From Candidatus Shapirobacteria bacterium (lineage in GTDB: Bacteria > Patescibacteriota > Microgenomatia > UBA12405), in contig JBAZTV010000002.1 in NCBI GenBank assembly GCA_041661765.1, forward strand, positions 74,212 through 138,211: 64,000 bases of DNA, in the 5' to 3' direction. Positions 26,641 through 44,902 of the stretch are shown here, piece after piece; positions within the stretch are counted from its first letter, which is position 1; each line of letters opens with the position of its first letter. Made by a program: the position numbers and the translations under genes. The notes beneath the pieces are model-generated. The model was not told where the DNA came from. It saw only the letters and a program-made list of their open reading frames with translations, and did no database searches.

Positions 26641-27720
26641 ATGGATAAAAAAATAAAAATCGCCATTGATATTTCTCCAACTCAAGATGGAAATGCTGTT
26701 CGTGGTGTTGGATACTACACATCAAATTTAGTTTCCGCCCTTCAAAAAGAAATTAAAAATAACCCAGATTATAAAAACTATCAAATTGATCTAATTAAAA
26801 ATATCAACGATCTATTGTCTACAACCTATAACCTAATTCACTATCCCTATTTCGATCCTTTTAAAACGACTTTGCCTAAAAAAACTGAAATACCCACTAT
26901 TGTCACCGTTCACGATCTTATTCCTATTCAATTCAAAAGTCATTTTCCGGTCGGCATTAAAGGCAACATTAAGTGGCTTTTACAAAAAAAACGTCTTTTA
27001 AAAGTCGATAAAATTTTAACTGTTTCTCATTACTCTAAAAACATTATTAACAGAATCACTAAATATAAATTAAACGATATTTTTGTCACCTATTTGGCCG
27101 CCGATAAAAATTTTAAAGTTTCATCCGATTCAAAAAAATTAAAAGAAATCAAAGATAAATACAAGCTTCCGTCAAAATTTATCCTATTTATTGGAGATAT
27201 TAATTGGAATAAAAATATTCCAACATTAGTCAAAACCTGTTCAAAACTAAATTATCCATTAGTAATTGTTGGCTCTGCTGCTACCAAAAAAGATGTTCCA
27301 AATCATCCTTGGACTCAAGATCTTCTTTGGCTTCAATCGCAAAAATCTTCAAATTTAATTTTCACCGGTTTTGTTCCAGATGAAGAACTTCCTTTTATTT
27401 ATAATCTAGCCACCGTCTATTGCCAACCATCTTTTGCTGAAGGTTTTGGTCTGCCATTAATTCAAGCCATGCAATCCGGTTGTCCTGTGGCATACAGTCA
27501 AGATTCTTGCCTAGATGAAATTATGGACTCCAATGGTCTTAAATTTGATCCCCATTCTCCAAAAAAATTAGAAAAAGTTTTAAAAAAATTTTGGAATAAT
27601 CAAAATATAAGACAAAAATATGCTAAACTTGGGCTAATCCGCGCCAAGAATTTTAATTGGCAAAACACTGCTCTTCAAACACTTACCCTTTATAATTTGG
27701 TGTTATCAAATGAAAAATAG
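26641..27720 (+). CDS. Glycosyltransferase family 4 (glycos_transf_1).
   Basis: FAEGFGLPLIQAMQSGCPVAYSQDSCLDEI (E-X7-E region). N-terminal acceptor domain. Confidence 0.85.
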   Translation: MDKKIKIAIDISPTQDGNAVRGVGYYTSNLVSALQKEIKNNPDYKNYQIDLIKNINDLLSTTYNLIHYPYFDPFKTTLPKKTEIPTIVTVHDLIPIQFKSHFPVGIKGNIKWLLQKKRLLKVDKILTVSHYSKNIINRITKYKLNDIFVTYLAADKNFKVSSDSKKLKEIKDKYKLPSKFILFIGDINWNKNIPTLVKTCSKLNYPLVIVGSAATKKDVPNHPWTQDLLWLQSQKSSNLIFTGFVPDEELPFIYNLATVYCQPSFAEGFGLPLIQAMQSGCPVAYSQDSCLDEIMDSNGLKFDPHSPKKLEKVLKKFWNNQNIRQKYAKLGLIRAKNFNWQNTALQTLTLYNLVLSNEK

Positions 27721-28513
27721 TAATCATTTTCTATCGGTCATAATCCCTATCTATAAACAAGAAAAAACCATTAAAAAAGATCTTCAAACCATAAACGAAA
27801 CTCTCAAACAAATTCGTTACAACTACGAAATTATCGCCGTTGTTGATGGTACTTCGATTGATAAATCACTTAAAGAAATCAAAAAATTAAAATTAAAAAA
27901 CCTAAAGGCTTTTGGTTACAAAACTAACCATGGTAAAGGCTATGCGGTTCGTTATGGCATGGCCAAAACCCAAGGCGATTACATTGCCTTTATTGATTCC
28001 GGCATGGAAATCGACCCTAATGGGATTTCTTTAGTATTAGAACACATGGAATGGTACAACGCCGATATAATAGTTGCTTCCAAGCGTCACCCAGCATCAA
28101 TGGTAAATTACCCATTAGATAGGAGAATTATTAGTTTTGGTGCCCATATTATTTCCAAATTTTTATTAGGAATTAATGTTCACGATACTCAAGCCGGATT
28201 AAAAATTTTCAAACGACCAGTTTTAATAAAAGTTCTTCCACGCCTTCTAGTCAAAAACTATGCTTTTGATCTAGAAATTTTATCGGTTGCTAATAAATTA
28301 GGATTTACTAAAATTTACGAAGCCCCAATTAAATTAAATTACGACTTTAAAAGTTTAACTCACGCCACTGGTCTTAAAACTATTTATAGTTGTCTTATGG
28401 AAGCTCTCGCTGTTTTTTATAGACTCAAAATTCTAAATTATTACGACGATAAAAATAAAAGAAAATGGGTTTACGATCCAGAATTAGAAATGAGAATTAA
28501 TACTGGAAAATAA
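27710..28513 (+). CDS. GT2 polyprenyl-phosphate glycosyltransferase (DPM1/GtrB-like, soluble form).
   Basis: FLSVIIPIYKQEKTIKKDL...IIAVVDGTSIDKS...FIDSGMEIDPNGI...HDTQAGLKIF. No C-terminal TM pair. Confidence 0.65.
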   Translation: MKNSNHFLSVIIPIYKQEKTIKKDLQTINETLKQIRYNYEIIAVVDGTSIDKSLKEIKKLKLKNLKAFGYKTNHGKGYAVRYGMAKTQGDYIAFIDSGMEIDPNGISLVLEHMEWYNADIIVASKRHPASMVNYPLDRRIISFGAHIISKFLLGINVHDTQAGLKIFKRPVLIKVLPRLLVKNYAFDLEILSVANKLGFTKIYEAPIKLNYDFKSLTHATGLKTIYSCLMEALAVFYRLKILNYYDDKNKRKWVYDPELEMRINTGK

Positions 28514-28515
28514 TT

Positions 28516-29487
28516 ATGAAAACTCCTATCTTTTCGATTATTATTCCAGTCCGACAAATCAATCCTTATCTAAAAGAAACTTTATTAAAATTAAAAAAAC
28601 AATCAGTTAAGAATTTTGAAGTATTAGTCATAACCGACGAAATTTCTGGATCAGCCAATCCTTCAGAAAAAAGAAATCTCGGCACTAAAACAGCTAAAGG
28701 GGATTATTTGGTTTTTTTTGACGACGATTCTTTTCCAAGTAAAAATTATTTTAAAAACGCTTTTAAATTAATCACCAAAAATCCCACTTTTGCCGCTTTT
28801 TGTGGTCCATGTATTACCCCACCCAAAGATAATTTATATCAAAAAGCCTCTGGTCTAGTTTGGTCTAGTTGGTTTGGTAGTGGCGGTGCTGGTGTTTATC
28901 GAAACAGTGTTCAAAAAACCCGTTTTGTTGATGATTATCCTTCTGTTAATCTCATTGTCAAAAAAAGTGATTTTAATTTAGCTGGTGGTTTTGACAGTTC
29001 TTATTGGCCCGGCGAAGATACTGTTCTTTGTTTAAAATTAGTCAAAAAACTTAATAAAAAAATTTATTATCACCCATCTTTAATTGTTTACCACCATCGT
29101 CGTTCAGTAATTATTCCCCATCTCCAACAAATTACTCGTTACGCCATCCAGCGTGGTTTTTTTGTCAAAAAATTTCCAGAAACCAGTCGAAAAATTGGTT
29201 ATTTTATTCCCAGCATATTTACTCTCTATATTATTTTAATAACAATTTTTCCATTAAATTTTTTATTTAAACTACCATTATATTTATATTTATCAATATT
29301 ATTTTTTACTTTTTTAAAATTTATTTTTCAAAAAAACAATCCCAAAGTTTCATTTTTAGCTGTAATTTCCATACCTCTTACTCATCTTTACTACGGTATA
29401 CTATTCCTACATGGCTTATTCAAAAAAGAAGTTACATTTAAACCTCACAACTTCGATCCACAAACCGGAAAATACATCGGTGGTTAA
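28516..29487 (+). CDS. Glycosyltransferase family 2 with C-terminal transmembrane segments.
   Basis: IFSIIIPVRQINPYLKETL...FFDDDSFP. Three or four C-terminal hydrophobic helices. Confidence 0.8.
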   Translation: MKTPIFSIIIPVRQINPYLKETLLKLKKQSVKNFEVLVITDEISGSANPSEKRNLGTKTAKGDYLVFFDDDSFPSKNYFKNAFKLITKNPTFAAFCGPCITPPKDNLYQKASGLVWSSWFGSGGAGVYRNSVQKTRFVDDYPSVNLIVKKSDFNLAGGFDSSYWPGEDTVLCLKLVKKLNKKIYYHPSLIVYHHRRSVIIPHLQQITRYAIQRGFFVKKFPETSRKIGYFIPSIFTLYIILITIFPLNFLFKLPLYLYLSILFFTFLKFIFQKNNPKVSFLAVISIPLTHLYYGILFLHGLFKKEVTFKPHNFDPQTGKYIGG

Positions 29488-30910
29488 ATCAGTTTCAATT
29501 TCCTATCCGCCATTAGAATCTAAAAAAGGCACTCCTTTTTTATCCCAAAATCGTCAATTTCAATGGACAAATACTGGAAATGTAATTTATCCAATTATTC
29601 CTGCCTATGCCGCCACTTTGTTAAAAAGTAAAGATTTAAAAATTTTTTGGGATGATGCCATTGCTCAAAATTTAACCTATAAAGAATGGTTTAAGCAGTT
29701 TCAAAAAAACAAACCTGATTTAATTGCTATTGAGACTAAAACCCCAGTCGTCAAAAAACATTGGCAAATTATCAATCAAATAAAAAAAGAATGTAAATGG
29801 AAACCGATTATCGTTTTAATGGGTGATCATGTCAGCGCTCTTCCAGAAGAATCAACCAAAAACTCAAAAGTCGATTTTGTTTTAATTGGTGGCGATTATG
29901 ATTTTTTATTAGATGAATTAATCGAATTAATTAATCAAGGTAAAACTCCAAAAAACAAGATTTTTAAACTTCAAAAAGGTCACGATTTAAATTCCTTGCC
30001 AATTATTGATCGACAACTAACTCAATGGCAACTTTATGCTTACAATAATACTAATTATAAATATAAGCCAGGATCATACATCATGTCAGGCCGTGACTGT
30101 TGGTGGGGAAAATGTACTTTTTGTTCTTGGACAACTCTTTTTCCAGGTAAAAACTTTCGCCATTTTTCTATCGAACACACTTTAAAAGAAATTGAAAATC
30201 TTGTTTATAATTTTGGTATCAAAGAAATTTTTGATGATTCAGGAACTCTTCCTATCGGCCCTTGGTTAAAAGAATTATGTCAGGCTTTAATTAGTCGCGG
30301 TCTAAATAAAAAAGTAAAAATCGGCTGTAATATGCGTTTTGGTGCACTTTCTTTGTCAGAATATAAATTAATGCACCAGGCCGGCTTTCGTTTCATTCTA
30401 TATGGTCTTGAATCCGCCAATCAATCAACTCTCAATTTTATAAATAAAAATGAAAAAACCTCTGATGCTCTAAAAACTCTAAAAATTGCTAAGGCTGCCA
30501 AACTCGAACCACACATCACCGTCATAATTGGGTATCCCAATGAAACTCTGGAAGACGCTCAAAAAACTTTAAATTTAGCCAGAAAAATTTTTAAAGACGG
30601 TTTAGCTGACAGTCTTCAAGCCACTATTTTAATTCCTTACCCTGGCACCCCACTTTTTAAATATTGTCAGGAAAATAATTTACTTTTAACCAATAATTGG
30701 GATGATTTTGATATGCGTCAACCGGTGATTAAAACGCCGATTTCTTCCGCTCATCAATTAAAATTAGTTCAGGGTCTATTCAAAGGCATTCTCACTCCCA
30801 AATTTATTTTAAAAAAAATAATTTCTATTCGATCTACAAAAGATATTCGACATCTTTCCAATTACGCTTTTAAATATCTTAAAAAATTAAAAGATTTTTC
30901 TAAAAAATGA
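29411..30910 (+). CDS. Cobalamin-binding (class B) radical-SAM enzyme with a non-canonical CX4CX2C cluster motif.
   Basis: N-terminal B12-binding-like Rossmann region (KPIIVLMGDHVSALPEE), then GRDCWWGKCTFCSW at 30098-30124. Homologous in layout to 36576-38090. An alternative GTG start at 29480 would cut the overlap with the upstream gene from 77 to 8 bp. Confidence 0.8.
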   Translation: MAYSKKKLHLNLTTSIHKPENTSVVKSVSISYPPLESKKGTPFLSQNRQFQWTNTGNVIYPIIPAYAATLLKSKDLKIFWDDAIAQNLTYKEWFKQFQKNKPDLIAIETKTPVVKKHWQIINQIKKECKWKPIIVLMGDHVSALPEESTKNSKVDFVLIGGDYDFLLDELIELINQGKTPKNKIFKLQKGHDLNSLPIIDRQLTQWQLYAYNNTNYKYKPGSYIMSGRDCWWGKCTFCSWTTLFPGKNFRHFSIEHTLKEIENLVYNFGIKEIFDDSGTLPIGPWLKELCQALISRGLNKKVKIGCNMRFGALSLSEYKLMHQAGFRFILYGLESANQSTLNFINKNEKTSDALKTLKIAKAAKLEPHITVIIGYPNETLEDAQKTLNLARKIFKDGLADSLQATILIPYPGTPLFKYCQENNLLLTNNWDDFDMRQPVIKTPISSAHQLKLVQGLFKGILTPKFILKKIISIRSTKDIRHLSNYAFKYLKKLKDFSKK

Positions 30911-31509
30911 AAAATTACGATTGGTTCCATTTAATGGAAACATATAAAAACATAGTAAGACCAAATTTTATAGTTCTAGAAATTGGAGCCTCTACTATCG
31001 ATAGAACTAATGAAATAGCAAAATATTGCCAAAAATTAATTGGAGTTGAATATTTAAATGAAAGACTACTTAAAAACCACAATAATATTCACTACCAATT
31101 AGGTGATTGGCAAAAATTAACTAAAGTAATTCCCCAAAACAGTATTGATTTAGCAATTAGTAGTCATACTATAGAACATATACCAAACGATATTAAAGCA
31201 CTAAACAAACTCTATTCGGTCTTAAAACCAAACAGTTATGCAATTTTAAACACCCCAAACAGAAAAAGATTGGTTAGACAGATAATTGAACTATTTACTA
31301 ACGAAAGACAGTTTCCGTATTGGGAACATATTCGTGAATATACTGAAGACGATTTAATTAAATTAATTAAAAAAACTAAATTTAAAGAATATAAAATAAC
31401 TCCAGTTTGTTTTGGTATTCATGGAGGTAATATTAAGTTTTACCTTAAAAAAGTGCCAAAACATTTTAGAAAATTTTCTAATTTTTGGGAAATAGTTTTA
31501 AAAAAATAA
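30907..31509 (+). CDS. Class I SAM-dependent methyltransferase.
   Basis: FIVLEIGASTIDRT (motif I), LAISSHTIEHIPND, LKPNSYAIL. 4-bp overlap with the upstream gene. Confidence 0.7.
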   Translation: MKNYDWFHLMETYKNIVRPNFIVLEIGASTIDRTNEIAKYCQKLIGVEYLNERLLKNHNNIHYQLGDWQKLTKVIPQNSIDLAISSHTIEHIPNDIKALNKLYSVLKPNSYAILNTPNRKRLVRQIIELFTNERQFPYWEHIREYTEDDLIKLIKKTKFKEYKITPVCFGIHGGNIKFYLKKVPKHFRKFSNFWEIVLKK

Positions 31510-31510
31510 T

Positions 31511-32521
31511 ATGACTCAAGTTTCTTTTATTATTCCTACTCTTAACGCTGCTTCTGTTTTAGAAACCAGTCTTAAATCTATTAAAAAACAAAACCTAAAA
31601 AATTACGAAATTATCATAATCGATGGAGGTTCCACTGACAATACTATAAAAATAGCCAAAAAATATCACGCCAAAATTTTAAAAAATCCTCTCAAAACAG
31701 CCGAAGCTGGTAAAGCAGTTGGTGTTCAAAAAGCCATTGGTAAATACATCGCCTTAATTGACTCAGACAATATTCTTCCCACTAAAAATTGGCTCCAAAC
31801 AAATATTGATATTTTAGAAAAAAATTCCCAATTAATTGGTACTGAGCCAATTCGTTTTACTTATCGCCTCAAGGCTGGTTTTATTGAAAGATATTCTGCT
31901 CTTATTGGTGTAAATGATCCTTATGCTTTTGTTTCTGGTGTTTATGATCGTCAAAATTACATCAATTTTAAATGGACAGGCCTTAAAATAGATCAAATCG
32001 ATAAAAATCAATATATTAAAATTACCTTAAAACCAGATTCTCCAATTCCTACTATTGGCGCCAACGGCACTATTTTTAGAACTGATTTTTTAAAAAACAA
32101 TCTAAAATCAGATTATCTTTTTGATATCGATATTCTTGCCGACTATTTAAATAAAAATAAAAAACCAATTTACTTTGCCAAAGTAAAACAGGGGATTATT
32201 CATACTTTTTGTGAATCATCAATTAAAAAATTTATCCGCAAACAAAATCGCCGAATAACCGATTATTTTTATTATAAAAACTACCGTCAATTTAATTGGA
32301 GCCAAACAAATAAATCAGGAACTTTAAAATTTACTTTTTATACAATTTTAATTATTCCCGTTCTTTTGGATACTTTTCGGGGTTTCATACACAAACCAGA
32401 CATCGCCTGGTTTTTCCATCCATTAGCTTGTTTTATGACTTTATATTTATATAGTATAAACACCATTAAAAATAAATTTGGTTTATTAAAACAAATTGAT
32501 AGATCCCAATGGCATCAATAA
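31511..32521 (+). CDS. Glycosyltransferase family 2.
   Basis: VSFIIPTLNAASVLETSLKSIKKQ...YEIIIIDGGSTDNT...LIDSDN. Confidence 0.8.
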   Translation: MTQVSFIIPTLNAASVLETSLKSIKKQNLKNYEIIIIDGGSTDNTIKIAKKYHAKILKNPLKTAEAGKAVGVQKAIGKYIALIDSDNILPTKNWLQTNIDILEKNSQLIGTEPIRFTYRLKAGFIERYSALIGVNDPYAFVSGVYDRQNYINFKWTGLKIDQIDKNQYIKITLKPDSPIPTIGANGTIFRTDFLKNNLKSDYLFDIDILADYLNKNKKPIYFAKVKQGIIHTFCESSIKKFIRKQNRRITDYFYYKNYRQFNWSQTNKSGTLKFTFYTILIIPVLLDTFRGFIHKPDIAWFFHPLACFMTLYLYSINTIKNKFGLLKQIDRSQWHQ

Positions 32522-32522
32522 A

Positions 32523-33518
32523 ATGAAAAAATACTCCTTTACTATTTTCATACCAGTTTATAACGGCGCCAAAACCATCAAAAAAACTCTTTTAAGTGTG
32601 TTCAGTCAAGATTATTCTAATTTTAAAGTTATTATTCAAGACAACAATTCTACCGACAATACTATAGATGTGGTTAAATCTTTTAACCATTCTAAAATTA
32701 AAATTTTTAAAAATAAAACTAGTTTAGGGTATAATGGCAATCTTAACGCTGGTATTAAAAATTGTCATGACGATATTGTTTTGCTTTTAGCTGCTGACGA
32801 TATTTTATCCAAAAATGCATTATCTCTTTATAATAAAGCCTTTAATTTATCAAAAAATATCGGCGCTGTCACTAGACCATATTTTTGGTTCGAGAAAGAT
32901 ATTGATATACCAGTTAGGACTAAAAAACAGTTAAATTCCAAAAAAGACACAATAGTCAAAATTACAGACAATCCCAAAAAAGTAATTCGCGTTTTTGAAA
33001 CTCTCGATCAACTTTCTGGTTTAGCCATGAAATTAAAATATATAGATATATTGTTTGGAAAAGAAGACTGGATAAGTCATGCTTATCCTTTTGTCTCAAT
33101 TTTTACTAAACATCCCATTGTTTATTTAAAAGATTACACAACAGCTGTATATATTGGTTCTAGTGCCACCAGATCTAATATATATCAAAAATCACCAATA
33201 TCTTGCTGGATTAATATGTTAAATTTGACTATTACTAGATCAAATCAACAAATAATTAAGAAAAAAATAATTAAAGATTTTATTGCCACTAACTATATTG
33301 GAATTCTTCAAATAAAAAATTATGGCAGCTGTTTATCTTTATATCGTGAAATATACTTTTTATTAAAATATAGACCAATAAACATTCTTAATTTTAAATT
33401 TTGGTTATTTACACTATTTACTGTTTTTACTCCAAAATTTATATCTAAAAATTTAACTGATTGGATAAAAGAAAAAATAAATTCAAAATTGATAAACCAA
33501 ATTTCTTTTCCTAAATAA
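32523..33518 (+). CDS. Glycosyltransferase family 2.
   Basis: ATG at 32523; the track start at 32496 is TTG. FTIFIPVYNGAKTIKKTLLSVFSQ...KVIIQDNNSTDNT...LLAADD. Confidence 0.8.
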   Translation: MKKYSFTIFIPVYNGAKTIKKTLLSVFSQDYSNFKVIIQDNNSTDNTIDVVKSFNHSKIKIFKNKTSLGYNGNLNAGIKNCHDDIVLLLAADDILSKNALSLYNKAFNLSKNIGAVTRPYFWFEKDIDIPVRTKKQLNSKKDTIVKITDNPKKVIRVFETLDQLSGLAMKLKYIDILFGKEDWISHAYPFVSIFTKHPIVYLKDYTTAVYIGSSATRSNIYQKSPISCWINMLNLTITRSNQQIIKKKIIKDFIATNYIGILQIKNYGSCLSLYREIYFLLKYRPINILNFKFWLFTLFTVFTPKFISKNLTDWIKEKINSKLINQISFPK

Positions 33519-33521
33519 TGT

Positions 33522-34445
33522 CTATTTTTTAGCTACCGCTAGACCCATCGGCCAAAACTGTTTAAAATTAACTGCTATCCATCTAAATATTGGTCTTATC
33601 TTTTTTGGTAAAAAATCAAGCATTATTGGGCATTCTAATCTTTTAATAAAAACACTTTTAAAACCAGCTTTCAAGTGCATTTTTTCTAATTTTTTTACTG
33701 GAAACGACATTTCGTAACCAAAAACCATATATTTCTCTTTAAGAAATTTAATATGAACAAATTCTGCAACTTGTTTTAAAATCGGAAAATCTGGAATATT
33801 ACCCCATATCTGTCGATATGTTAAAGAACCAATATTTAATATTGGAACAGCGTTAATTACTACCCCTTTTTTTGAAGTTACTCTAAATAATTCTCGAAGA
33901 CATTCTTCTGTTTTTTGAAAATGTTCTATCACTCCACCACCATAAATCAAATTCACAGACTTATTTTTTAAAGGAATTTTAAAAACATCACCATGAATTA
34001 AAATAAAATTTTTAATTCCTTGGTCTTTTAGCATTTGTCTCGCTATCTTTAATCCTTTTAGTGAAAAATCAATACCTATCACTAACTTACATTTTTTGGC
34101 TAATATTTGACCAAGAAAAAATGATCCACACCCAATTTCTAAATAAATCGTCTCTTTGTTTAATTTAGACTCCCTTTCTATTTGTCCGCCCCCGTTTATT
34201 AAATAATTTTTTCTTACATCTTCATATTCTTTTAAATAACTTTTTTTTTCTTGCCATTTTTTATAAAAATACTCCCATTTTTTATGACTTAATATTTTTT
34301 CCTCACTTAATTTTGGCAACGTTCTCAATATTTCATCACGATAATCGTATTTTAAACCACATTTTAAACAAATTAACATATCTTTTTTTTGTACCAATTC
34401 ACCTCCACAGTTACTGCATTCAAGAATATCTATAAACTCTTTCAT
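33522..34445 (-). CDS. Class I SAM-dependent methyltransferase with an N-terminal Trm112-like zinc ribbon.
   Basis: CSNCGGELVQKKDMLICLKCGLKY (Cys4), then YLEIGCGSFFLG...LVIGIDFS. It is the only minus-strand gene in a 20-kb run of plus-strand genes. Confidence 0.75.
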   Translation of the reverse strand: MKEFIDILECSNCGGELVQKKDMLICLKCGLKYDYRDEILRTLPKLSEEKILSHKKWEYFYKKWQEKKSYLKEYEDVRKNYLINGGGQIERESKLNKETIYLEIGCGSFFLGQILAKKCKLVIGIDFSLKGLKIARQMLKDQGIKNFILIHGDVFKIPLKNKSVNLIYGGGVIEHFQKTEECLRELFRVTSKKGVVINAVPILNIGSLTYRQIWGNIPDFPILKQVAEFVHIKFLKEKYMVFGYEMSFPVKKLEKMHLKAGFKSVFIKRLECPIMLDFLPKKIRPIFRWIAVNFKQFWPMGLAVAKK

Positions 34446-34478
34446 CCTTTATAATATAACAATAATCTTTTAATTTAT

Positions 34479-35378
34479 ATGGGATTAACAGCACCGTCAC
34501 TAAAATTCATTTTACTTTTAAATAAAAAATATAAATTTAAAGGTCCACTTTTAACATACGGTAATCAAGATATATATGCCGACCTCAAAACAATTAAAAA
34601 ATGGACAAAAGAATATAAATTACCTAATATTTCCTCCAAAAAATATTATAAAAGCAGTAGTTTGGATTTGAAACAAATTAATCCAGAATCGAAAAATTTT
34701 GTTCATGCTAAAACATTTTTTAAACAAATTGGAATCAAGGAAAGTAATTATTACGATGTTGATAAATTTGATTTTGATAAACCTAAAATTATTCACGATT
34801 TAGAAAAACCCTTTGATAAAAAATACAATAATTTTTTTAATCTTATCATTGATTCTGGTACCATGGAACATATTTTTGATATTAAATCGGTAATGGTAAA
34901 CACTGTTAAAATAACTAAACTAGGTGGCTATGTTTTATATATGATTCCGGCCAATAATTTTTTAAATCATGGTTTTTATCAAATATCACCTACTTTTTTT
35001 TATGATTTTTATACCGCTAATGGATTTAAAATTATTGAGTCCTACATCACTGAAGCAAAACCAACTTGTATCCGTTTTCACAAATATAATCAAAAATTAA
35101 CAAATGAAACATTTTTTAATCCTTTTTCTCGTCTTGGATCAGTATTCTTAGTTAAAAAAATAAAAAATATTAAAAATATCAAAAGTCCAACCCAATTTGC
35201 TTATTCAAACGTTATTGACTCTATACAAAAGAAAAAACAAATAAAACATTTTGATAAGTTTACAAATAAATTAAGAAGAATGGTGCCTTTTAAATATCAT
35301 GGTTTATTTTATATTCCTTGGATAATTTATAAAATTATTTCCACTAAAAAAAATTATTTTGATTTAAGTTTTAAATGA
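34479..35378 (+). CDS. Methyltransferase-like protein (class I MTase fold probable).
   Basis: LIIDSGTMEHIFDIKSVMVNTVKITKLGGYVLYMIP resembles the motif II/III region of class I MTases. I did not see the glycine-rich motif I. Confidence 0.5.
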   Translation: MGLTAPSLKFILLLNKKYKFKGPLLTYGNQDIYADLKTIKKWTKEYKLPNISSKKYYKSSSLDLKQINPESKNFVHAKTFFKQIGIKESNYYDVDKFDFDKPKIIHDLEKPFDKKYNNFFNLIIDSGTMEHIFDIKSVMVNTVKITKLGGYVLYMIPANNFLNHGFYQISPTFFYDFYTANGFKIIESYITEAKPTCIRFHKYNQKLTNETFFNPFSRLGSVFLVKKIKNIKNIKSPTQFAYSNVIDSIQKKKQIKHFDKFTNKLRRMVPFKYHGLFYIPWIIYKIISTKKNYFDLSFK

Positions 35379-36592
35379 AAGATAAAATTCTCTTTATTTC
35401 ATTCTATAATTTTGGTTACGGTGGTTTGAGTGGTGGTGACAGAATATTTATAGAATTAATCAATGGATGGAAAGAAAAAATATCAGTGGGGATAATGGGC
35501 ACAAAAGAATGTTTGAAAACTTTTCAAAAATATCACAATACAAAAAACATTGAAACCTTCATACTTAATTCAAAATTGTCTTTTTCTAAAAAAATAAATA
35601 ATATCCATTATTTACTACACTCAATAAATTGTACATTTTTAAGTATAAAATCTATTTTTAGATATAAAAAATCTATTTCAAAATATAAATATATTTATTC
35701 CGCATCAGATTTTTACCCAGATACTATCCCTGCGTTTTTAATAAAACTATTTTTTAAAGACAAAATATGGATAGCATCATTTTATCTTTTCGCTCCAAAA
35801 CCCTGGCAAAAAAATAATCCATATAAAACATCTTTTTCTAGATTTATTACAGGAACCCTTTATTGGCTTACTCAGAAATTAACTTTTTTTATCGTTTATT
35901 ATTTTGCTGACTATGTTTTTGTTACTTCTAAACCAGATGTGGCAAAATTTATCTCTTCTAAAAGAAATAAGAATAAAATAATAATTATTAAAGGCGGAGT
36001 AGATACTGCTCCATCCAAAAATTTTATTCAAAAAACAAATAATTTTAAATATTTAGCAGTTTTTATTGGTCGTCTTCATCATCAAAAAGGAGTTCTCGAA
36101 CTTATAGACATTTGGAAAAATGTATACCAACTTCTACCATCGGCCAAATTAGCCATAATAGGTAATGGTCAGTTAATTAAAGACGTTAAATATAAAATAT
36201 TAAAAAATAAATTAAAAAATAATATTGAATTGTTTGGGTTTCTAGATGGTAAAGAAAAATTTAATATTTTTAAAACATCAAGGATTGTTGTTCATCCAGC
36301 AATCTATGATAGTGGTGGAATGGCGGCCGCAGAAGCAATGGCATGGGGACTACCAGGTGTTTCTTTTGATCTAAAAGCATTAAAAACATATTACCCTAAA
36401 GGTATGGTAAAAACCAAATGTTTTGATCTTCAAGAATTTGCTAAAAATATAATTAAACTTTCTCAAAATCAAACCTATTATAAAAAAATGTCTGAAGAGG
36501 CAAAAAATCTAATTGAAACAAAATGGTCTTGGAAAATAAGGTGTCAAGAAATTTATAATCAAGTATTTATATTAAATGAAAAAAAAATTTGA
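35375..36592 (+). CDS. Glycosyltransferase family 4 (glycos_transf_1).
   Basis: C-terminal GGMAAAEAMAWGLPGVSFD (E-X7-E region) and LAVFIGRLHHQKG. Confidence 0.75.
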   Translation: MKDKILFISFYNFGYGGLSGGDRIFIELINGWKEKISVGIMGTKECLKTFQKYHNTKNIETFILNSKLSFSKKINNIHYLLHSINCTFLSIKSIFRYKKSISKYKYIYSASDFYPDTIPAFLIKLFFKDKIWIASFYLFAPKPWQKNNPYKTSFSRFITGTLYWLTQKLTFFIVYYFADYVFVTSKPDVAKFISSKRNKNKIIIIKGGVDTAPSKNFIQKTNNFKYLAVFIGRLHHQKGVLELIDIWKNVYQLLPSAKLAIIGNGQLIKDVKYKILKNKLKNNIELFGFLDGKEKFNIFKTSRIVVHPAIYDSGGMAAAEAMAWGLPGVSFDLKALKTYYPKGMVKTKCFDLQEFAKNIIKLSQNQTYYKKMSEEAKNLIETKWSWKIRCQEIYNQVFILNEKKI

Positions 36593-38090
36593 CATAGTTC
36601 TTTTATCTCCACCATCCCGAAGTTTTAATCACTATCGTCCTCCTATGGCTTTAATTTATTTAGCTGGATATCTTAAACATAATAATTTATCATGCAAAAT
36701 TATTGATGTTACTGAAAAGACAGTTATTCGTAATAAAAAATTTTTTGATCAAATTAATAAACACCGCCAATCCATAGAAGACGAAATAATAAAACAAATT
36801 AAAAATAATCCGACCAATATATATGGCATAACTTGTTATACGCCAGAATATTTTGAAGTTCTTGATTTAGCTAAAAAAATAAAAGAGATTAACCCAAAAG
36901 CTACCATTATAGTTGGCGGGATTCATCCAACTCTATATCCAAATGAATTATTTGAAGAAAAGAATACCCCTGTAGATTTTGAAGTAATAGGGGAAGGGGA
37001 AGAAACACTTTTTGAATTATTAACTGCAATTAAAAACAAAATAAATGATTTTTCTAAAATTAAAGGAATAGCATATTTAAATAAAGATAAAATTGTGAAC
37101 AATCCACTTCGTCCTCTCCAAGAAAATCTCGATTGTATATCTTTCGCTGATTACGATCAAATAGATATGGAGTATTATTCAAATGCTTCACCTTATTCTA
37201 TTCGTGGTTGTTTCCTTAGATCAGCCTACCTCCTCGCTACAAGAGGTTGTCCATCCGCTTGTACTTTTTGTGTTGCCAAGAAACTTCGTAATTATAATGG
37301 TGGCGGTAAATATACTCGAGTTCGATCAGCTAAAAACCTAATTAAAGAAATTAAGCATTTATATAAAAAATACCAAATTGATAGTTTTTATTTTATTGAT
37401 GATCTTTTTACTATTAACCAAAATAATGTTGAAGAATTTTGTCACCTTCTCAAAAAAGAAAAACTCCATTTGCTTTGGGGTTGTTCATCTAAGGTTTCTA
37501 CTCTTAATGAAAATTTACTAAAAAAAATGTCTCAATCTGGTTGTATTCAAATTGACTTTGGTATCGAACGTGGCTCTAATAAAGCATTAAATGATATTAA
37601 AAAAGGTATTTCAATAGAAATGATCTCTAAAGTTTTTAATCTCTGTCATAAATTTCATATTAGAACATTTGCTAATTTTTTAGTCAATCTTCCTAATGAA
37701 ACAAAAAAAGATTTAAATGATATTACTAATTTTGCCAAAAAAATAAAACCTGATATCGTTAGTATTAATGTTTTTACTCCATATCCTGGTACTGAAATTT
37801 ATGACCAAAGTTCTTATAAATTTACTAAAGATGAGTACCAAACATTAACCTATGCTTCCATTCTAATTAAGAAATCACCAGAAAAATTTCGTTTTTCAAA
37901 ACATAAAATTGACATTCTATCCTGGGCCAATTCAAAAAACAATGAATTCAACCGCCTTTTACCTAATATTATTTTTCATCTAAGTCCTCGATATTTATCA
38001 ATTATTATTAAATCAAAAAGAAAATTAAATTATTTTAGTCAATTTAAATTTTTAATCCAAGAATTAATTAATCAAAAATATTCAAATTAA
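36576..38090 (+). CDS. Cobalamin-binding (class B) radical-SAM enzyme.
   Basis: N-terminal B12-binding-like domain (ATIIVGGIHPT), canonical RGCPSACTFCV (CX3CX2C), GG motif (YNGGGK). Confidence 0.85.
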   Translation: MKKKFDIVLLSPPSRSFNHYRPPMALIYLAGYLKHNNLSCKIIDVTEKTVIRNKKFFDQINKHRQSIEDEIIKQIKNNPTNIYGITCYTPEYFEVLDLAKKIKEINPKATIIVGGIHPTLYPNELFEEKNTPVDFEVIGEGEETLFELLTAIKNKINDFSKIKGIAYLNKDKIVNNPLRPLQENLDCISFADYDQIDMEYYSNASPYSIRGCFLRSAYLLATRGCPSACTFCVAKKLRNYNGGGKYTRVRSAKNLIKEIKHLYKKYQIDSFYFIDDLFTINQNNVEEFCHLLKKEKLHLLWGCSSKVSTLNENLLKKMSQSGCIQIDFGIERGSNKALNDIKKGISIEMISKVFNLCHKFHIRTFANFLVNLPNETKKDLNDITNFAKKIKPDIVSINVFTPYPGTEIYDQSSYKFTKDEYQTLTYASILIKKSPEKFRFSKHKIDILSWANSKNNEFNRLLPNIIFHLSPRYLSIIIKSKRKLNYFSQFKFLIQELINQKYSN

Positions 38091-38091
38091 A

Positions 38092-38970
38092 ATGAAATAT
38101 TGCCGACTTTGTAATAGTAAAAATATTATCAAATCTTTTTTGTCACCAGACACACATGGTCGACACTTAAATAATAATAATTGTTACCAAATGTATTATT
38201 GCAATTCATGTACCGCTTTTTTTCTCGGCAAAGAAGAAACAAAATCAAATTATTTTTCACTATCTTATCCACCAAATTACTATTCAACCAGCTCATTTTT
38301 TTCTAAATTCATAATGTCAATTTTTGGATTATTTAGTCAAAAAAAACATTTGATTATTTCACGTCATTTTTCCAAAAAAACAAAAATTAAAATTCTTGAT
38401 ATAGGATGTTGCCGAGGCGAATTTTTAAATGGTTTACCATCAAATCGTTTTAAAAAATTTGGCGTAGAAATTAATCCTCAAGTCGCCAAAATTGCCTCTT
38501 TATCAGGACTTAATATAATCACTGGTGACATTAATCAAATTGACTTTAAAACTAAAAAATTTGATTGTATTACTATGTGGCATGTTTTTGAACATTTACC
38601 CAATCCTTCAAAAACTATTCAACAAATATCAAAAATTTTAAAACCAAATGGTTTATTAATTTTTACTGTTCCAAATTCTAACTCAATTGGTTTTAAATAT
38701 GGTCATAAAAATTTTTTTCATCTAGATTCTCCTCGACACTTATTCATTCCAAATGAAAAATCTCTTGAAAAACTTCTTCAACAATCAGATCTTACAAAAA
38801 TTACATTTAAAAATCCATTTCTCGAATATCCGTTAGATCTTTTTTGGTCTATCCGTAAATCAAATATAAAATATATTATATACCCATTTTATCTCATTTT
38901 TAAAATATTCAGTCCTGAATTACTCCAAGTCACCGCAACAAAACCTGCTAAATTAAATAAAACAAAATAA
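38092..38970 (+). CDS. Class I SAM-dependent methyltransferase with an N-terminal zinc ribbon.
   Basis: CRLCNS...CNSCTAFF (Cys4), then ILDIGCCRGEFL, WHVFEHLPNP, LKPNGLLIFTVPN. Confidence 0.8.
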   Translation: MKYCRLCNSKNIIKSFLSPDTHGRHLNNNNCYQMYYCNSCTAFFLGKEETKSNYFSLSYPPNYYSTSSFFSKFIMSIFGLFSQKKHLIISRHFSKKTKIKILDIGCCRGEFLNGLPSNRFKKFGVEINPQVAKIASLSGLNIITGDINQIDFKTKKFDCITMWHVFEHLPNPSKTIQQISKILKPNGLLIFTVPNSNSIGFKYGHKNFFHLDSPRHLFIPNEKSLEKLLQQSDLTKITFKNPFLEYPLDLFWSIRKSNIKYIIYPFYLIFKIFSPELLQVTATKPAKLNKTK

Positions 38971-39004
38971 TCTTTAACCACCTGAAATTTCAAACTGCTT
39001 TCAT

Positions 39005-40783
39005 TTATTTCTTAACAGTAGTTTGATTTGTTTTTAATTGAGTTAAAAGATCAATAGCCTGAGTCCAACCTGGATTAACCTTAATCAACTGTTCTAAAAT
39101 AGAAACTGCCTGTTCCGTCTGACCCATATTAACATAAACCACAGCTGCAGCGTAATAAACTTGCGGATCATTGGGTCTAATTGTATTTAGTTTATTTAAA
39201 TGATTTATTGCTGAATTGAAATTTTTTTCAGTTAAATCAATTTGCAATAAACTATAATAACTTTGATACAAATTAGGTCCATAAGACAAAGCCGTTTCAT
39301 AACTATCTCTAGCTAAATCATATCTTCCAATTTTATAAAAAATATTAGCCCGATTATGATATGCGTCAGCATAATTTGACTTTACTGTTACTGATTGAGT
39401 AAAACCTCTTATTGAAAATAAATACTGTTTTATCTTCTCTTCATCAGTAGTTTCTAATTGTGCTAATTTATCATAATCATCTCCAATATTATTCCAAGCG
39501 TTGTGACTATTTGGTGACACCTGACAAGTATTAACCCATAAATTATGATTAGTCTGCCAATCAACGTTTCTTAAAAATGTTCTTATACTATAAAAAGACA
39601 TTAAAAAAGCAAGTAAAATTATCGCAATATAAACATTCTTTTTATAAATTTTTTCAAAAATTATTGCCAAAAATAAACAAAAACCTAAGCTTCCTAAAAA
39701 TACATATCTTTCTGCAACCAACCAACTAACCTTTACTGGAGCCATAGACGGAGCAGTTGCCGCAAAAATAAAAGCTAATGCAAAAAAAATTTTTTTATCT
39801 TTAAAATAAAAATAAATTACAGCTATCAAATAAGACAAGGTTATTAACCAATTTAACCAAGTAGGTAGAACATACATCGTATGATATAAAGTTAAATCAA
39901 CTGGAATAAACACTAATTGAAGATACTTAGCTATTGATGTTGGATACTGAAAAAACGGATCATAAAAAATTCCACCATAGCCGTTATAACCAGAATTAAC
40001 ACTATTAATTCTAGATACTATATTAGGCCAAATCAGACAAGCCAAAGCTAATAAAACAATTATCATTATTGGCCAATATCTGAATACTTTTATTTTTTTA
40101 ATACTTATATTCTTTAAAATTAAATATATAGGTATTATCAAAAACAATAAAAAAGGTCTGGGTTTATCGTTTAAAAAACTCAAAATAAAAGGAATTATTA
40201 CCCCTAATAAATACCAATTTTTATTTGTTTCTACATACTTTATAAAAAAAATCATTGATACTAATAAATAAAAAGCAATAAATAAATACCCCTTACCAGA
40301 TATCCACGACACCGCTTCAACGTGTACCGGTAAAACAGCGAATATTAATAAAGCTACAATACTTATTCTTTTGTCAAATAAAGAATACAAAAACAAAAAA
40401 GCCAGCCAACACACTGAAATATATAATAAAAGACTAAAAAAATGATATGCCAAAGGTGTTACACCAAAAACATTAGCTATTAATGAATTAATAAAATAAG
40501 TTGAAGAAAAACCATTTAAAGCATATTTTGAAGTTGTCAATTCAGAGTTATTTAATATCGTTGCATAGTCGTCCGATACAAAATCACCATGCAAAGAATT
40601 AAAATACAAAACAAATATTCCCAAAGACAAAAACAATAAAAATTTCCAATTCTCTTTTAATATTTGCCTTATTCCTTTTACATGTTCAATATCAGTTGTT
40701 TCCATCAAAGTTACTGTTTCGATTCTCCTTAATTTTTTAGCTTTTTTCTGCGACATATCTAATATTTTAACAAGTCCCCTCAT
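39005..40783 (-). CDS. Polytopic membrane protein with a C-terminal TPR-repeat domain (TMTC / PMT_2-TPR-like putative glycosyltransferase).
   Basis: About 12 TM followed by TPR-like repeats (AWNNIGDDYDKL..., YADAYHNRANIFYKIGRYDLARDSYETAL, NDPQVYYAAAVVYVNMGQTEQAVSILEQLIKVNP). The start may instead be the ATG at 40756 (MSQKK). Confidence 0.75.
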   Translation of the reverse strand: MRGLVKILDMSQKKAKKLRRIETVTLMETTDIEHVKGIRQILKENWKFLLFLSLGIFVLYFNSLHGDFVSDDYATILNNSELTTSKYALNGFSSTYFINSLIANVFGVTPLAYHFFSLLLYISVCWLAFLFLYSLFDKRISIVALLIFAVLPVHVEAVSWISGKGYLFIAFYLLVSMIFFIKYVETNKNWYLLGVIIPFILSFLNDKPRPFLLFLIIPIYLILKNISIKKIKVFRYWPIMIIVLLALACLIWPNIVSRINSVNSGYNGYGGIFYDPFFQYPTSIAKYLQLVFIPVDLTLYHTMYVLPTWLNWLITLSYLIAVIYFYFKDKKIFFALAFIFAATAPSMAPVKVSWLVAERYVFLGSLGFCLFLAIIFEKIYKKNVYIAIILLAFLMSFYSIRTFLRNVDWQTNHNLWVNTCQVSPNSHNAWNNIGDDYDKLAQLETTDEEKIKQYLFSIRGFTQSVTVKSNYADAYHNRANIFYKIGRYDLARDSYETALSYGPNLYQSYYSLLQIDLTEKNFNSAINHLNKLNTIRPNDPQVYYAAAVVYVNMGQTEQAVSILEQLIKVNPGWTQAIDLLTQLKTNQTTVKK

Positions 40784-40803
40784 TTCCTCAAGGGAGGGGA
40801 TTT
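40772..40803 (-). other. 10-bp-stem hairpin (AAGTCCCCTC / GAGGGGATTT, one G-U pair). Lies between the YvcK-like gene and the TM-TPR gene and spans the annotated ATG (40783) of the latter.
   Basis: Directly visible. No clear U-tract follows on the minus strand. It is either a weak terminator for 40814-41800, or a structure sequestering the first ATG; the true start could be the ATG at 40756. Confidence 0.35.
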
Positions 40804-40813
40804 AAGGGTAGGT

Positions 40814-41800
40814 TTAAATCTCTAAAGTCTTAAACAATTCTCCTAATTTCTCCTCACTGTGTCTCAATCTCATATTTTTTTCTTCAATTTTAGCCAAATC
40901 AACTGCAATTGTTTTAATCTCACTACTTTCAGCCATTTTTACTAAATTAGCATGTTCCAATTCATAAAAATAAAAAATTTTTTCTAACATTTTTTTATCC
41001 AAATTAGTAAGGTCAACCATCACTACTAAGTCAAAAGGGGATTCATTTTTTAAATATTTTTTAAATATTTCAACATAATCTAATTGTGTTGCTTCTTTTG
41101 CCTCGTTTGCCATTGAAAAAATATTGACAAAAAATATTTTTTTAGCGTTACTGTCATTAAAAGCTTTCGCCATACCTTCTGGTAAAAAATTTGGCAAAGA
41201 TGAACCATAAGTTGTCCCAGGAGCAACCATGATTAAATCTGCTTTTTTAACAGCTTCTATTGCCTTTTCATTAGCCTCAACTACTGGATTAAGCCAAATC
41301 TCATCTATTTTATCTGATGACATTTTTAAATCATCAATAAAATTTTCACCCTCATACTCTTTTCCAGAAATCGTTCTAAAACAAACATTAGATGGTTTTA
41401 AAGACACTGGAATCACTTCACCGGCCAATTTTGCTCCAGTCAATTTACAAAATAAATCATCTATTTCTCCTAAACCGCCTTCTTTCTCCGATAAGAATTG
41501 AAAAAAAGTATTACCAAAATTTCGACCCCGACCATCACGATATCTCAACATTTCCTCCCAACTTTCTTTTTGCTCTCCATCAACCCATAAAGAAATTAAT
41601 GATCGCCAATAATCAGAAAAAGCTAGTATTTTTCCTCTCTCGTCAGTTTTGATTCTTCCAGTATCACCACCACTATCAAAAGTTGTCACAATCGATTTAA
41701 TATTTTCAAATCCAGACCCAACTAAAGCCTTATTTACAATCGGCATCCCAGATCCACCACCAATTGTACAAATCTTCAGATTTTTATTCATAAACATCAT
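40814..41800 (-). CDS. YvcK/CofD-family protein (UPF0052; gluconeogenesis-factor / 2-phospho-L-lactate-transferase-like).
   Basis: ICTIGGGSGMPIVNKAL...TTFDSGGDTGRI matches the GGGxG...DSGG signature of this family. Confidence 0.8.
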   Translation of the reverse strand: MMFMNKNLKICTIGGGSGMPIVNKALVGSGFENIKSIVTTFDSGGDTGRIKTDERGKILAFSDYWRSLISLWVDGEQKESWEEMLRYRDGRGRNFGNTFFQFLSEKEGGLGEIDDLFCKLTGAKLAGEVIPVSLKPSNVCFRTISGKEYEGENFIDDLKMSSDKIDEIWLNPVVEANEKAIEAVKKADLIMVAPGTTYGSSLPNFLPEGMAKAFNDSNAKKIFFVNIFSMANEAKEATQLDYVEIFKKYLKNESPFDLVVMVDLTNLDKKMLEKIFYFYELEHANLVKMAESSEIKTIAVDLAKIEEKNMRLRHSEEKLGELFKTLEI

Positions 41801-41834
41801 TATACTTTAAAAAAAGTATAAAATTGATAAACTG

Positions 41835-42905
41835 ATGCACATGGGTCTAATAAGACTTTTACTCGCCATTTCAGTTATAACAGCTCACTCCAATCCTATT
41901 TTTGGTTTTAATTTTATTGGTGGTCAAATAGCTGTTGAAATTTTCTTCATGATTTCCGGCTTCTACATGGCCTTAATTTTAACCGAAAAATACAACAAAA
42001 AATCAGATTATAGATTATTCATTAGTAATCGTTTTTTAAAAATTTATCCAACCTACTGGCTTATTTTAATTTTGTGTTTTATCTATCGATTGGTTTTGTC
42101 TCATTTTAACCCAAATTCTCCTGATATTTTTGCTTTTTTTAATTCAAATTATCATTTAAATCCTTTTAGTTTCCTATTTTTATTAATCCCCAATTTCACT
42201 ATTTTTGGATTAGATTTAGGTTTGTTTCTTGGTCTTAATTTAACCACTGGAGCACTCTTTTTTACTTCAAATTTTCATCAATTTTTTCCACCACTTTATG
42301 ATTTCAACTTAATTGTTCAAGCTTGGACTCTTAGTTTAGAGTTAATGTTTTATCTCTTGGCTCCATTCCTAAATCTTCTCAAAAATAAATATTTACTATT
42401 AATAATGTCATTAAGTTTTGGACTAAGACTATTTCTTTATAACCTAGGTTTAAATCATGATCCTTGGACTTATCGCTTTTTCCCCACTGAATTAATTTTC
42501 TTTTTATCAGGAATAATTATGTACCGATTTTACCGATATATAAAAACTAAAGATTTCAAAAAAATATCTATCTTCTGTTTCTTTTTTTATTTTTCATTTT
42601 TATTTTACTATCACTTTTTACCCCACGAACGAACCAAACAATTAATTATTTTTCTTTTTAGTTTTATTTTTATTCCTTTTATTTTTAATTTATTTAAAAA
42701 TAATAAAATCGACCGATTTGTCGGAGAACTTTCCTTTCCTGTCTATTTATTGCATTTTTTAATAATTGATATTTTTACCCACTTTACCAACTTACCACAT
42801 CAATTTTTAAGTTTAATTACTACTATCGTTTCTATTATTTTTTCTATTTTTATTTTAAAACTTATTATTAATCCTATAAATAATTTCCGCCAATCACGAA
42901 TTTAA
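41835..42905 (+). CDS. Acyltransferase family 3 (OafA/WecH-like membrane O-acyltransferase).
   Basis: IRLLLAISVITAHS...GGQIAVEIFFMISGFYMA. About 10 TM. Confidence 0.8.
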   Translation: MHMGLIRLLLAISVITAHSNPIFGFNFIGGQIAVEIFFMISGFYMALILTEKYNKKSDYRLFISNRFLKIYPTYWLILILCFIYRLVLSHFNPNSPDIFAFFNSNYHLNPFSFLFLLIPNFTIFGLDLGLFLGLNLTTGALFFTSNFHQFFPPLYDFNLIVQAWTLSLELMFYLLAPFLNLLKNKYLLLIMSLSFGLRLFLYNLGLNHDPWTYRFFPTELIFFLSGIIMYRFYRYIKTKDFKKISIFCFFFYFSFLFYYHFLPHERTKQLIIFLFSFIFIPFIFNLFKNNKIDRFVGELSFPVYLLHFLIIDIFTHFTNLPHQFLSLITTIVSIIFSIFILKLIINPINNFRQSRI

Positions 42906-43723: not shown

Positions 43724-43727
43724 ATCT

Positions 43728-44871: not shown

Positions 44872-44902
44872 AGAACCTTCAATTAATACTTATTTACCAA
44901 CG

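Follow-up and report, generated by a model that had tools for sequence, protein, structure and literature searches.

Two candidate glycosyltransferase-radical SAM units in a strain-variable segment of a large glycan locus of Candidatus Shapirobacteria

The 64 kb stretch of DNA analysed here, referred to below as the window, comes from Candidatus Shapirobacteria, a lineage of the candidate phyla radiation (CPR, Patescibacteria). It carries glycosylation genes throughout, and the glycosylation island runs on for at least 10 kb past each window end. We focus on a segment of this island that contains two radical S-adenosylmethionine (radical SAM, rSAM) genes, rSAM1 and rSAM2, set among glycosyltransferase (GT) and methyltransferase (MTase) genes. 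The window encodes about 14 GT2, four to five GT4, about 10 GT-C/PMT_2 and one GT87 enzymes, together with a Wzx-type flippase, an ABC-2 permease, an ATP-binding cassette (ABC) ATPase and an acyltransferase-3; its nucleotide-sugar enzymes include DegT aminotransferases, an FdtA-like isomerase, a hexapeptide acetyltransferase and epimerases. Each rSAM is conserved in synteny with a specific GT, and a role of the segment in glycan tailoring, proposed from gene placement in a first-pass annotation of this DNA, appears quite likely. Our best explanation, which we hold with moderate confidence, is that two portable GT-rSAM units make up a tailoring segment that varies between strains, within a very large locus for a cell-envelope glycan. 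The genes of the segment, and of the conserved block before it, are as follows.

26641..27720, plus strand: GT4-type glycosyltransferase (Glycos_transf_1, 82.6 bits); first gene of the conserved block before rSAM1, with orthologues at the same position in many metagenome loci
27710..28513, plus strand: GT2 (Glycos_transf_2, 79 bits); orthologues recur upstream of rSAM1
28516..29487, plus strand: membrane-anchored GT2 (Pfam GT2 families) with three C-terminal hydrophobic segments at 227-296; outside the interval covered by the first-pass annotation
29411..30910, plus strand: rSAM1 (Radical_SAM, 59 bits), with a Rossmann-like N-terminal domain and a Cx4Cx2C motif (C230, C235, C238)
30907..31509, plus strand: class I SAM methyltransferase of 200 aa (Methyltransf_23, 45.7 bits, also Methyltransf_11); its start overlaps the rSAM1 stop by 4 nt
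31511..32521, plus strand: GT2 (Glycos_transf_2, 77 bits)
32496..33518, plus strand: GT2 (Glycos_transf_2, 85.5 bits), likely start ATG 32523; orthologues in related loci, including Omnitrophota
33522..34445, minus strand: class I SAM methyltransferase with an N-terminal four-cysteine Zn ribbon (Methyltransf_31, 60.5 bits; Methyltransf_11, 59.5 bits); orthologues in the related loci L044 and L104
34479..35378, plus strand: methyltransferase-like member of a small family of its own (about 300 aa), with no Pfam or NCBIfam family above threshold
35375..36592, plus strand: GT4-type glycosyltransferase (Glycos_transf_1, 89.8 bits); conserved partner of rSAM2
36576..38090, plus strand: rSAM2 (Radical_SAM, 75.6 bits, and B12-binding, 72 bits), with C225x3C229x2C232
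38092..38970, plus strand: class I SAM methyltransferase with an N-terminal four-cysteine Zn ribbon (Methyltransf_23, 92.3 bits); conserved partner of rSAM2

The nine open reading frames listed in the first-pass annotation, from 29411 onwards, are all present, its start at 32523 being an internal ATG of the frame 32496-33518. The gene order that it gave holds, as do seven of its nine gene identities. Since neighbouring genes within this nine-gene segment either overlap or are separated by 1-34 nt, a separate precursor-peptide gene has no room, which agrees with the earlier statement that no such frame is present. The minus-strand methyltransferase lies between plus-strand genes, with 3 nt between the convergent stops (33518-33522) and 33 nt between the divergent starts (34445-34479), so that its promoter must sit inside a neighbouring gene. 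A promoter/terminator scan of 25000-41900 gave counts equal to the shuffled expectation (98 vs 97.8; 8 vs 7.1) and thus no operon information. Databases label these genes only as "radical SAM protein" or "hypothetical protein", apart from the mistaken names "BchE" and "YgiQ".

The rSAM2 protein combines a radical SAM domain (PF04055, 75.6 bits) with a B12-binding domain (PF02310, 72 bits, against a cut-off of 32.1), and its canonical cysteines C225, C229 and C232 are invariant among 121 sequences. Class B enzymes carry a CXXXCXXC motif (PMC12931638), and by architecture rSAM2 is a predicted class B, or cobalamin-type, rSAM. Its AlphaFold model has a predicted local distance difference test score (pLDDT) of 92, and the best PDB matches found with Foldseek are TsrM, MgmA (9ccb), AprD4, OxsB, CysS and TokK, at 14-18% identity. 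Additional conserved cysteines occur in both proteins: C289, C303, C323 and C357 in rSAM2, and C290, C306 and C419 in rSAM1. We considered an auxiliary cluster as their role and set it aside; two of these residues, C303 and C323 of rSAM2, coincide with AprD4 cysteines in the alignment, which points to structural positions in the core.

In order to examine the genomic neighborhoods of rSAM2 relatives, we scanned one genome per GTDB species, obtained 80 loci, and searched their open reading frames with the proteins of the window. Orthologues of rSAM2 were defined by a score of at least 440 bits and orthologues of the partner GT4 by 200 bits or more, and counts were made on loci with full flanks. 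The rSAM2 orthologues share 44-83% identity and span many phyla. Among the 24 orthologue loci, the GT4 (35375) is adjacent in 17, the Zn-ribbon methyltransferase (38092) is likewise adjacent in 17, and 13 have both, in the order GT4-rSAM-MTase or GT4-MTase-rSAM. Orthologues of these two partners are adjacent in none of the 34 loci of more distant rSAM2 homologues. Another B12-rSAM paralogue is encoded nearby in 21 of the 24. On contigs of about 100-450 kb, rSAM2 orthologues lie beside the GT4 and/or the methyltransferase in lineages that include Patescibacteria, Omnitrophota, Firestonebacteria, Planctomycetia, Kiritimatiellae, Nitrospina, Acididesulfobacter and the archaeon Methanoperedens. 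The Methanoperedens locus consists of an epimerase, B12-rSAM, GT4, GT4, MTase, B12-rSAM, MTase, GT4, MTase, rSAM2, an uncharacterised protein and a PMT_2/STT3-like protein; the locus from Kiritimatiellae is likewise a glycan cluster, and both are clusters of GT, MTase, B12-rSAM and GT-C genes. No relatives of rSAM2 were found in viral contigs, which leaves a phage-borne cassette without evidence.

Two short contigs, assigned to 'Methanoperedens' (L013, 5.9 kb) and 'Gammaproteobacteria' (L015, 29.6 kb), carry the Shapirobacteria-type flank (a GT-C gene with tetratricopeptide repeats (TPR) and CofD) or orthologues of rSAM1 and GT2, at 64-67% identity, and are probably misbinned CPR contigs in public metagenome-assembled genomes. 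The cross-phylum reading therefore rests on long contigs. Related glycan clusters with four or more B12-rSAM paralogues are present at L006 (Omnitrophota), L022, L027 and L043; L006 further contains genes for a GT9 heptosyltransferase-like protein, a carbamoyltransferase and an SxtJ-like protein.

The neighborhoods of rSAM1 were examined in a metagenome scan that yielded 80 loci, with identities of 50-90%. Its best-conserved neighbour is the membrane-anchored GT2 28516-29487: in 44 of 61 loci an orthologue of this GT2 sits immediately upstream of rSAM1, and the functional unit of rSAM1 therefore begins upstream of the interval described in the first-pass annotation. The downstream neighbour varies; the one identified most often, especially in close relatives, is GT2 31511, which comes next after rSAM1, itself or as a weaker relative, in 19 of 62 loci. 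The start of rSAM1 is ambiguous, being either ATG 29411, with a 77-nt overlap with the upstream gene, or GTG 29480, with an 8-nt overlap with the upstream stop. Conservation among homologues starts near residue 27, and pLDDT is below 50 for residues 1-20. The families of rSAM1 and rSAM2 share a two-domain plan that includes the N-terminal domain (99.5% probability over 345 columns in a profile-profile comparison with hhalign).

The cluster motif sets rSAM1 apart. Cx4Cx2C occurs in 12 of 12 rSAM1 orthologues, and no other B12-rSAM-like frame of those loci has it as its only motif. Among 1.84 billion cluster representatives it is essentially confined to the best 40 or so hits, with one stray among ranks 61-150, and the rSAM1 clade as a whole is small, with 253 of these representatives found at an E-value of 1e-30 or better. 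In four members of the rSAM1 family (P0340, P0343, P0346 and P0348), 150-440 extra residues are inserted immediately ahead of the third iron-sulphur cysteine (…CTF/C[FV]xxxT … AN/C[SV]W). This insertion looks like an intein with the cluster cysteine as its +1 residue.

Directly downstream of both rSAM genes of the window, within 1-4 nt, comes a gene for a class I methyltransferase. The first-pass annotation counted four SAM methyltransferases, of which three (30907, 33522 on the minus strand, and 38092) are firmly assigned, all exceeding the Pfam cut-off of 27 bits; their PDB matches are generic only. Both Zn-ribbon methyltransferases have an N-terminal CxxC...CxxC arrangement, with weak Trm112p and A2L Zn-ribbon hits for 33522, and 97% of 29 orthologues of 38092 keep its cysteines 4, 7, 37 and 40. 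The fourth, 34479, gives only a weak and divergent match (14 bits against the cut-off of 27). Within its family, 27 of 34 members hit Methyltransf_23 weakly (best E-value 2e-6), the family profile matches a PDB methyltransferase weakly (E 0.003), and SAM motif I is replaced by a conserved G-N-Q-D. Orthologues of 34479 follow the Zn-ribbon methyltransferase in the Omnitrophota loci L026, L029 and L032. Judging from these matches, the fold of 34479 is probably that of a divergent class I methyltransferase in which the SAM motif is degenerate. A single protein of 700 aa, P0154, has rSAM1 fused to an orthologue of 30907, the C-terminus being 67% identical. More distant fusions of B12-rSAM-like and class I methyltransferase domains are seen in P0433 and P0483, and several very long proteins, among them P0407 (2279 aa), P0455 (1820 aa), P0417 and P0461, contain two to four tandem B12-rSAM-like modules.

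The segment lies between conserved flanks. In close relatives, the left flank consists of GT-C genes followed by GT2, GT4, GT2, GT2, rSAM1 and GT2, and the right flank consists of genes for the TPR-containing GT-C, the CofD-like protein, the acyltransferase-3 and the ABC-2 permease. In the window the right flank and the genes associated with it are as follows.

39005..40783, minus strand: multi-pass GT-C-like (PMT_2) protein with a C-terminal TPR (TPR families; PMT_2, 23 bits) and about 11 hydrophobic segments; at the same position in L008, L010, L012, L044 and others
40814..41800, minus strand: CofD/YvcK-like protein (CofD, 128 bits); syntenic in related loci, conserved flank
41835..42905, plus strand: acyltransferase-3 membrane protein (Acyl_transf_3, 94.9 bits), a family to which sugar O-acyltransferases belong; also in synteny in L010 and L044
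42923..43723, plus strand: ABC-2 permease, Wzm-like (ABC2_membrane, 67.6 bits), a candidate glycan exporter; syntenic in related loci
45600..46355, plus strand: ABC transporter ATPase (ABC_tran, 88.6 bits), the likely partner of the ABC-2 permease

Between these flanks, L010 has rSAM1 and no rSAM2, and L044 has rSAM2 and two other rSAM genes without the Zn-ribbon methyltransferase. L101 and L104 encode the GT4 and the methyltransferase without rSAM2, and L008 contains an additional B12-rSAM and other methyltransferases. As close relatives differ in the tailoring genes that they carry, we regard this as a strain-variable decoration segment, and the variation in content between flanks resembles the serotype-like variation of surface-glycan loci.

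Gene content, domain architecture and the synteny of each rSAM with its own GT are observed, whereas we infer substrate, cellular location, methyl transfer and cobalamin use, and propose the following. The first unit would comprise the membrane-anchored GT2 (28516-29487) and rSAM1 (29411-30910), here with the class I methyltransferase 30907 as an optional member, and the second would comprise the GT4 (35375), rSAM2 (36576) and the Zn-ribbon methyltransferase (38092). The substrate of each rSAM would be the sugar installed by its partner GT, which the rSAM would modify at an unactivated carbon by 5'-deoxyadenosyl-radical chemistry, while the class I methyltransferases may O- or N-methylate neighbouring positions. 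Decoration would take place on a lipid-linked envelope glycan before its export, probably by the ABC-2 transporter or by the Wzx-type flippase elsewhere in the island, and the many GT-C enzymes could then continue glycosylation outside the cell. The chemistry considered most likely for rSAM2, by analogy and tentatively, is methylcobalamin-dependent C-methylation, as performed by GenK, GenD1 and MoeK5. Short of such detail, the radical-SAM units probably decorate surface sugars in an uncharacterised way.

GenK and GenD1 from the gentamicin pathway and MoeK5 from the moenomycin pathway are class B rSAM enzymes that C-methylate sugars (PMC5461906; PMC12931638). They have the same N-terminal B12-type Rossmann domain and CxxxCxxC rSAM core as rSAM2, a likeness of domain plan, and they too modify an oligosaccharide as it grows, in the company of GTs and class I N/O-methyltransferases (PMC5461906; PMC12931638). 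They differ in setting, as these are actinomycete antibiotic pathways, whereas rSAM2 lies in a cell-envelope glycan island of uncultured lineages with small genomes.

The class I methyltransferases of the segment have parallels of their own. Methylated glycans of the surface or for storage, made by alternating GTs and class I methyltransferases, include O-antigens of the ABC-dependent pathway, which are terminally methylated by WbdD, and the mycobacterial polymethylated polysaccharides. As in the window, such systems have GTs interleaved with several class I methyltransferases and an ABC-2 exporter nearby; to our knowledge, they use no radical-SAM enzymes. No WbdD-like kinase, coiled-coil domain or carbohydrate-binding Wzt domain was detected here. 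We also considered whether the GT2 proteins beside the rSAMs are polyprenyl-phosphate synthases of the GtrB/ArnC type, and rejected this for 31511 and 32496, which have no strongly hydrophobic segment and only weak ArnC/dolichyl-phosphate hits.

Several findings weigh against the two-unit explanation or against its chemistry. Neither rSAM reaches any of the curated NCBIfam cut-offs (BchE, HpnJ, HpnR, PhpK, the glutamine C-methyltransferase of methyl-coenzyme M reductase (MCR), BzaD, ladderane-type, KedN5), and the top models for both proteins are those of the non-methylating enzymes BchE and HpnJ. With the curated cut-offs in brackets, rSAM2 scores 187.2 bits for BchE (481), 181.7 for HpnJ (578) and 175 for ApyD (750), and rSAM1 scores 123 for HpnJ (578), 88 for the MJ_1487-type model (251) and 87.5 for BchE (481). 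In rSAM1, the B12-binding domain PF02310 reaches 19 bits against the Pfam cut-off of 32.1, the cluster motif RDCWWGxCxFCSW is non-canonical and invariant in 121 homologues, and the modelled fold is closest to AprD4. With respect to synteny, the GT4 and the methyltransferase are each missing beside rSAM2 in seven of the 24 loci and are absent in the closest relative, L044, an orthologue of methyltransferase 30907 is found in only two of the 80 rSAM1 loci, and the P0154 fusion could be a frameshift artefact of two genes overlapping by 4 nt. No initiating phosphoglycosyl transferase (Bac_transf, MraY/WecA-type) was recognised among window frames of at least 120 aa, and no genes for cobalamin uptake, remodelling or biosynthesis were seen in about 85 kb (the window and about 10 kb on each side).

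Because the B12 domain of rSAM1 is sub-threshold and its motif is non-canonical, the sequence features of class B hold for rSAM2 alone. The first-pass annotation had described two cobalamin-dependent enzymes; this is upheld by sequence for rSAM2 and is not established for rSAM1, for which the use of cobalamin seems possible but somewhat doubtful. The C-methylation that it had suggested is plausible for rSAM2, though not established. It had also named clustering with non-methylating clades as an outcome that would count against it: the top models do describe non-methylating enzymes, yet the scores are far below those of family members. In addition, the largest group of the similarity network contains class B enzymes of both kinds, methylating and non-methylating, which are inseparable by sequence or structure (PMC12931638).

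The alternative that survives best is that one or both rSAMs perform non-methylating radical sugar chemistry, the class I methyltransferases alone supplying methyl groups. We consider this unlikely overall, and strongest for rSAM1, whose chemistry is open between methylation and an AprD4-like, cobalamin-independent radical dehydration or rearrangement. The options include an AprD4-like 1,2-diol dehydration giving a deoxy or keto sugar, an HpnJ- or OxsB-like ring contraction or carbocyclisation, and epimerisation. AprD4, from the apramycin pathway, acts as a sugar 1,2-diol dehydratase (PMC5461906), and AprD4, which has a Rossmann-like domain, and ArsL homologues have a similar fold and bind no cobalamin (PMC12931638). 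The fold similarity to AprD4 is the highest found for rSAM1, and AprD4 is also among the top matches of rSAM2; the cluster loop is one residue longer than the canonical one in both AprD4 (GCPYPCRFYCP, Cx3Cx3C in the alignment) and rSAM1 (Cx4Cx2C), and the B12-binding score of rSAM1 is below threshold. However, identity to AprD4 is only 16%, the AprD4 family model NF033070 gives only 35.2 bits for rSAM1 and 73.2 bits for rSAM2 against a cut-off of 500, and there is no AprD3-like partner adjacent to either gene, in contrast to the apramycin system with its reductase AprD3. A precomputed PF02310 hit exists for about 40% of the rSAM1 homologues listed. Natural-product clusters with several B12-rSAM paralogues usually contain methylases, which also speaks against a purely non-methylating role.

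A second model for such chemistry is the hopanoid pathway, in which the GT2 HpnI installs a sugar and, after HpnK, the BchE-family rSAM HpnJ remodels it, making a cyclitol ether from a lipid-linked glucosamine (PMC12324291). Here rSAM1 is likewise tied to an upstream membrane GT2, and HpnJ is its top curated model, aligned nearly end to end. The likeness ends with the GT: we tested 28516-29487 as an HpnI homologue and rejected it, as there is no HpnI hit and the best curated match is MftF-like (60.9 bits, below its cut-off), and no hopanoid genes are present. For rSAM2, the best model is BchE, the anaerobic cyclase of Mg-protoporphyrin monomethyl ester; the gene has no tetrapyrrole context whatever. 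Several homologues are named BchE by JGI, and this name on database entries is over-annotation.

It is improbable that the rSAMs act on a lipid, either the polyprenyl carrier or a glycolipid anchor on which the GTs build, in the manner of hopanoid methylases, ladderane enzymes or the archaeal tetraether rSAMs. In favour of a lipid substrate, the ladderane-type lipid B12/rSAM model scores 79 and 102 bits with the two rSAMs, and HpnR scores 47 and 102 bits; the membrane-anchored GT2 architecture of the conserved rSAM1 partner is common among lipid glycosyltransferases, and CPR bacteria depend on scavenged lipids. However, these scores are far under the cut-offs of 360-650 bits, neither rSAM1 nor rSAM2 has a hydrophobic segment, and the partners of rSAM2, the GT4 and the methyltransferase, are both soluble and accompany it in bacteria as well as in archaea, whose membrane lipids differ chemically.

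We consider a peptide or protein substrate for the rSAMs and methyltransferases, whether in a ribosomally synthesized and post-translationally modified peptide (RiPP) pathway or through C-methylation like that of MgmA and Mmp10, with a chance location amid glycosylation genes, very improbable, which for RiPPs is in line with the first-pass annotation: the RiPP models ApyD (175 bits) and TIGR03975 (121.8 bits) do score with rSAM2, MgmA is among the best sequence and structural matches, and the GT-C/PMT_2 enzymes of the island could glycosylate proteins, but the gaps of at most 34 nt hold no precursor gene, no RiPP recognition element (RRE), SPASM, peptidase or leader-recognition domain was detected with Pfam and NCBIfam, the cut-offs of 750 (ApyD) and 281.85 bits (TIGR03975) are not approached, and the synteny with specific GTs extends across many phyla.

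It is already known that class B rSAMs modify sugars in antibiotic pathways. Two points would be new: the recurrent use of such enzymes in envelope-glycan loci, as a mobile cassette shared across phyla and domains, and the AprD4-like clade with the Cx4Cx2C motif. We found no description of radical-SAM enzymes in cell-envelope glycan synthesis in the literature on radical SAM/cobalamin with polysaccharide biosynthesis, Patescibacteria or CPR, and the literature on radical SAM/cobalamin with O-antigen or Omnitrophota yielded only papers that do not describe this module. A 2026 review of B12-rSAM enzymes mentions neither glycans nor polysaccharides (PMC12931638). A bolder version, which we regard as speculative and rather unlikely in full, is that horizontally exchanged systems install C-alkylated, deoxygenated or carbocyclic sugars on the envelopes of Patescibacteria, Omnitrophota and some archaea, with rSAM1 as founder of a cobalamin-independent AprD4-like clade of sugar-modifying enzymes. 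On that reading, radical chemistry would underlie the surface-glycan diversity of these largely host-dependent organisms, with rSAM2 adding a need for scavenged cobalamin. The synteny defines a three-gene cassette, found from CPR bacteria to Methanoperedens, that is amenable to expression and assay. Should the proposed chemistry be confirmed, it would account for some of the diversity on the surfaces of ultra-small episymbionts and point to a possible cobalamin dependency in organisms thought unable to make the cofactor.

The remainder of the window contains further features of the glycan island. About 10 paralogous GT-C genes (PMT_2/PMT-like) and one GT87 gene are located at 1648-3372, 12014-13615 (minus strand), 15848-25816 and 39005-40783 (minus strand), and also at 14057-15238; six of the GT-C genes form a near-tandem run, and this investment in GT-C is unusually large for a genome of about 1 Mb. 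A further GT2, encoded at 57200-58141 (minus strand), is PgfS/ArnC-like (208 bits with the PgfS model) and has transmembrane segments at its C-terminus; it is likely to be a polyprenyl-phosphate sugar synthase feeding the GT-C enzymes.

The region 52305-57189 encodes two DegT aminotransferases, the FdtA-like isomerase (53861-54331, minus strand) and the hexapeptide acetyltransferase (53406-53858, minus strand), which is the gene set expected for a 3-acetamido-3,6-dideoxyhexose. Amid nucleotide-sugar genes, the plus-strand region 59006-62780 encodes a DmpF-like acetaldehyde dehydrogenase, an HMGL/DmpG-type aldolase and a three-domain thiamine pyrophosphate (TPP) enzyme (acetolactate-synthase/YerE-like), and these genes may represent a pathway for a branched-chain or higher-carbon sugar.

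Between the ABC-2 permease and its probable ATPase (42923-46355) lie four unrelated small genes, encoding a GNAT protein, a DUF4230 protein, an NYN domain protein and one more. In the relative L010 the permease and ATPase genes are adjacent, and in L008 they are one gene apart. From 12000 to 44000, the GC skew of the plus strand stays strongly negative (-0.2 to -0.3) and never switches, though most genes are on that strand.

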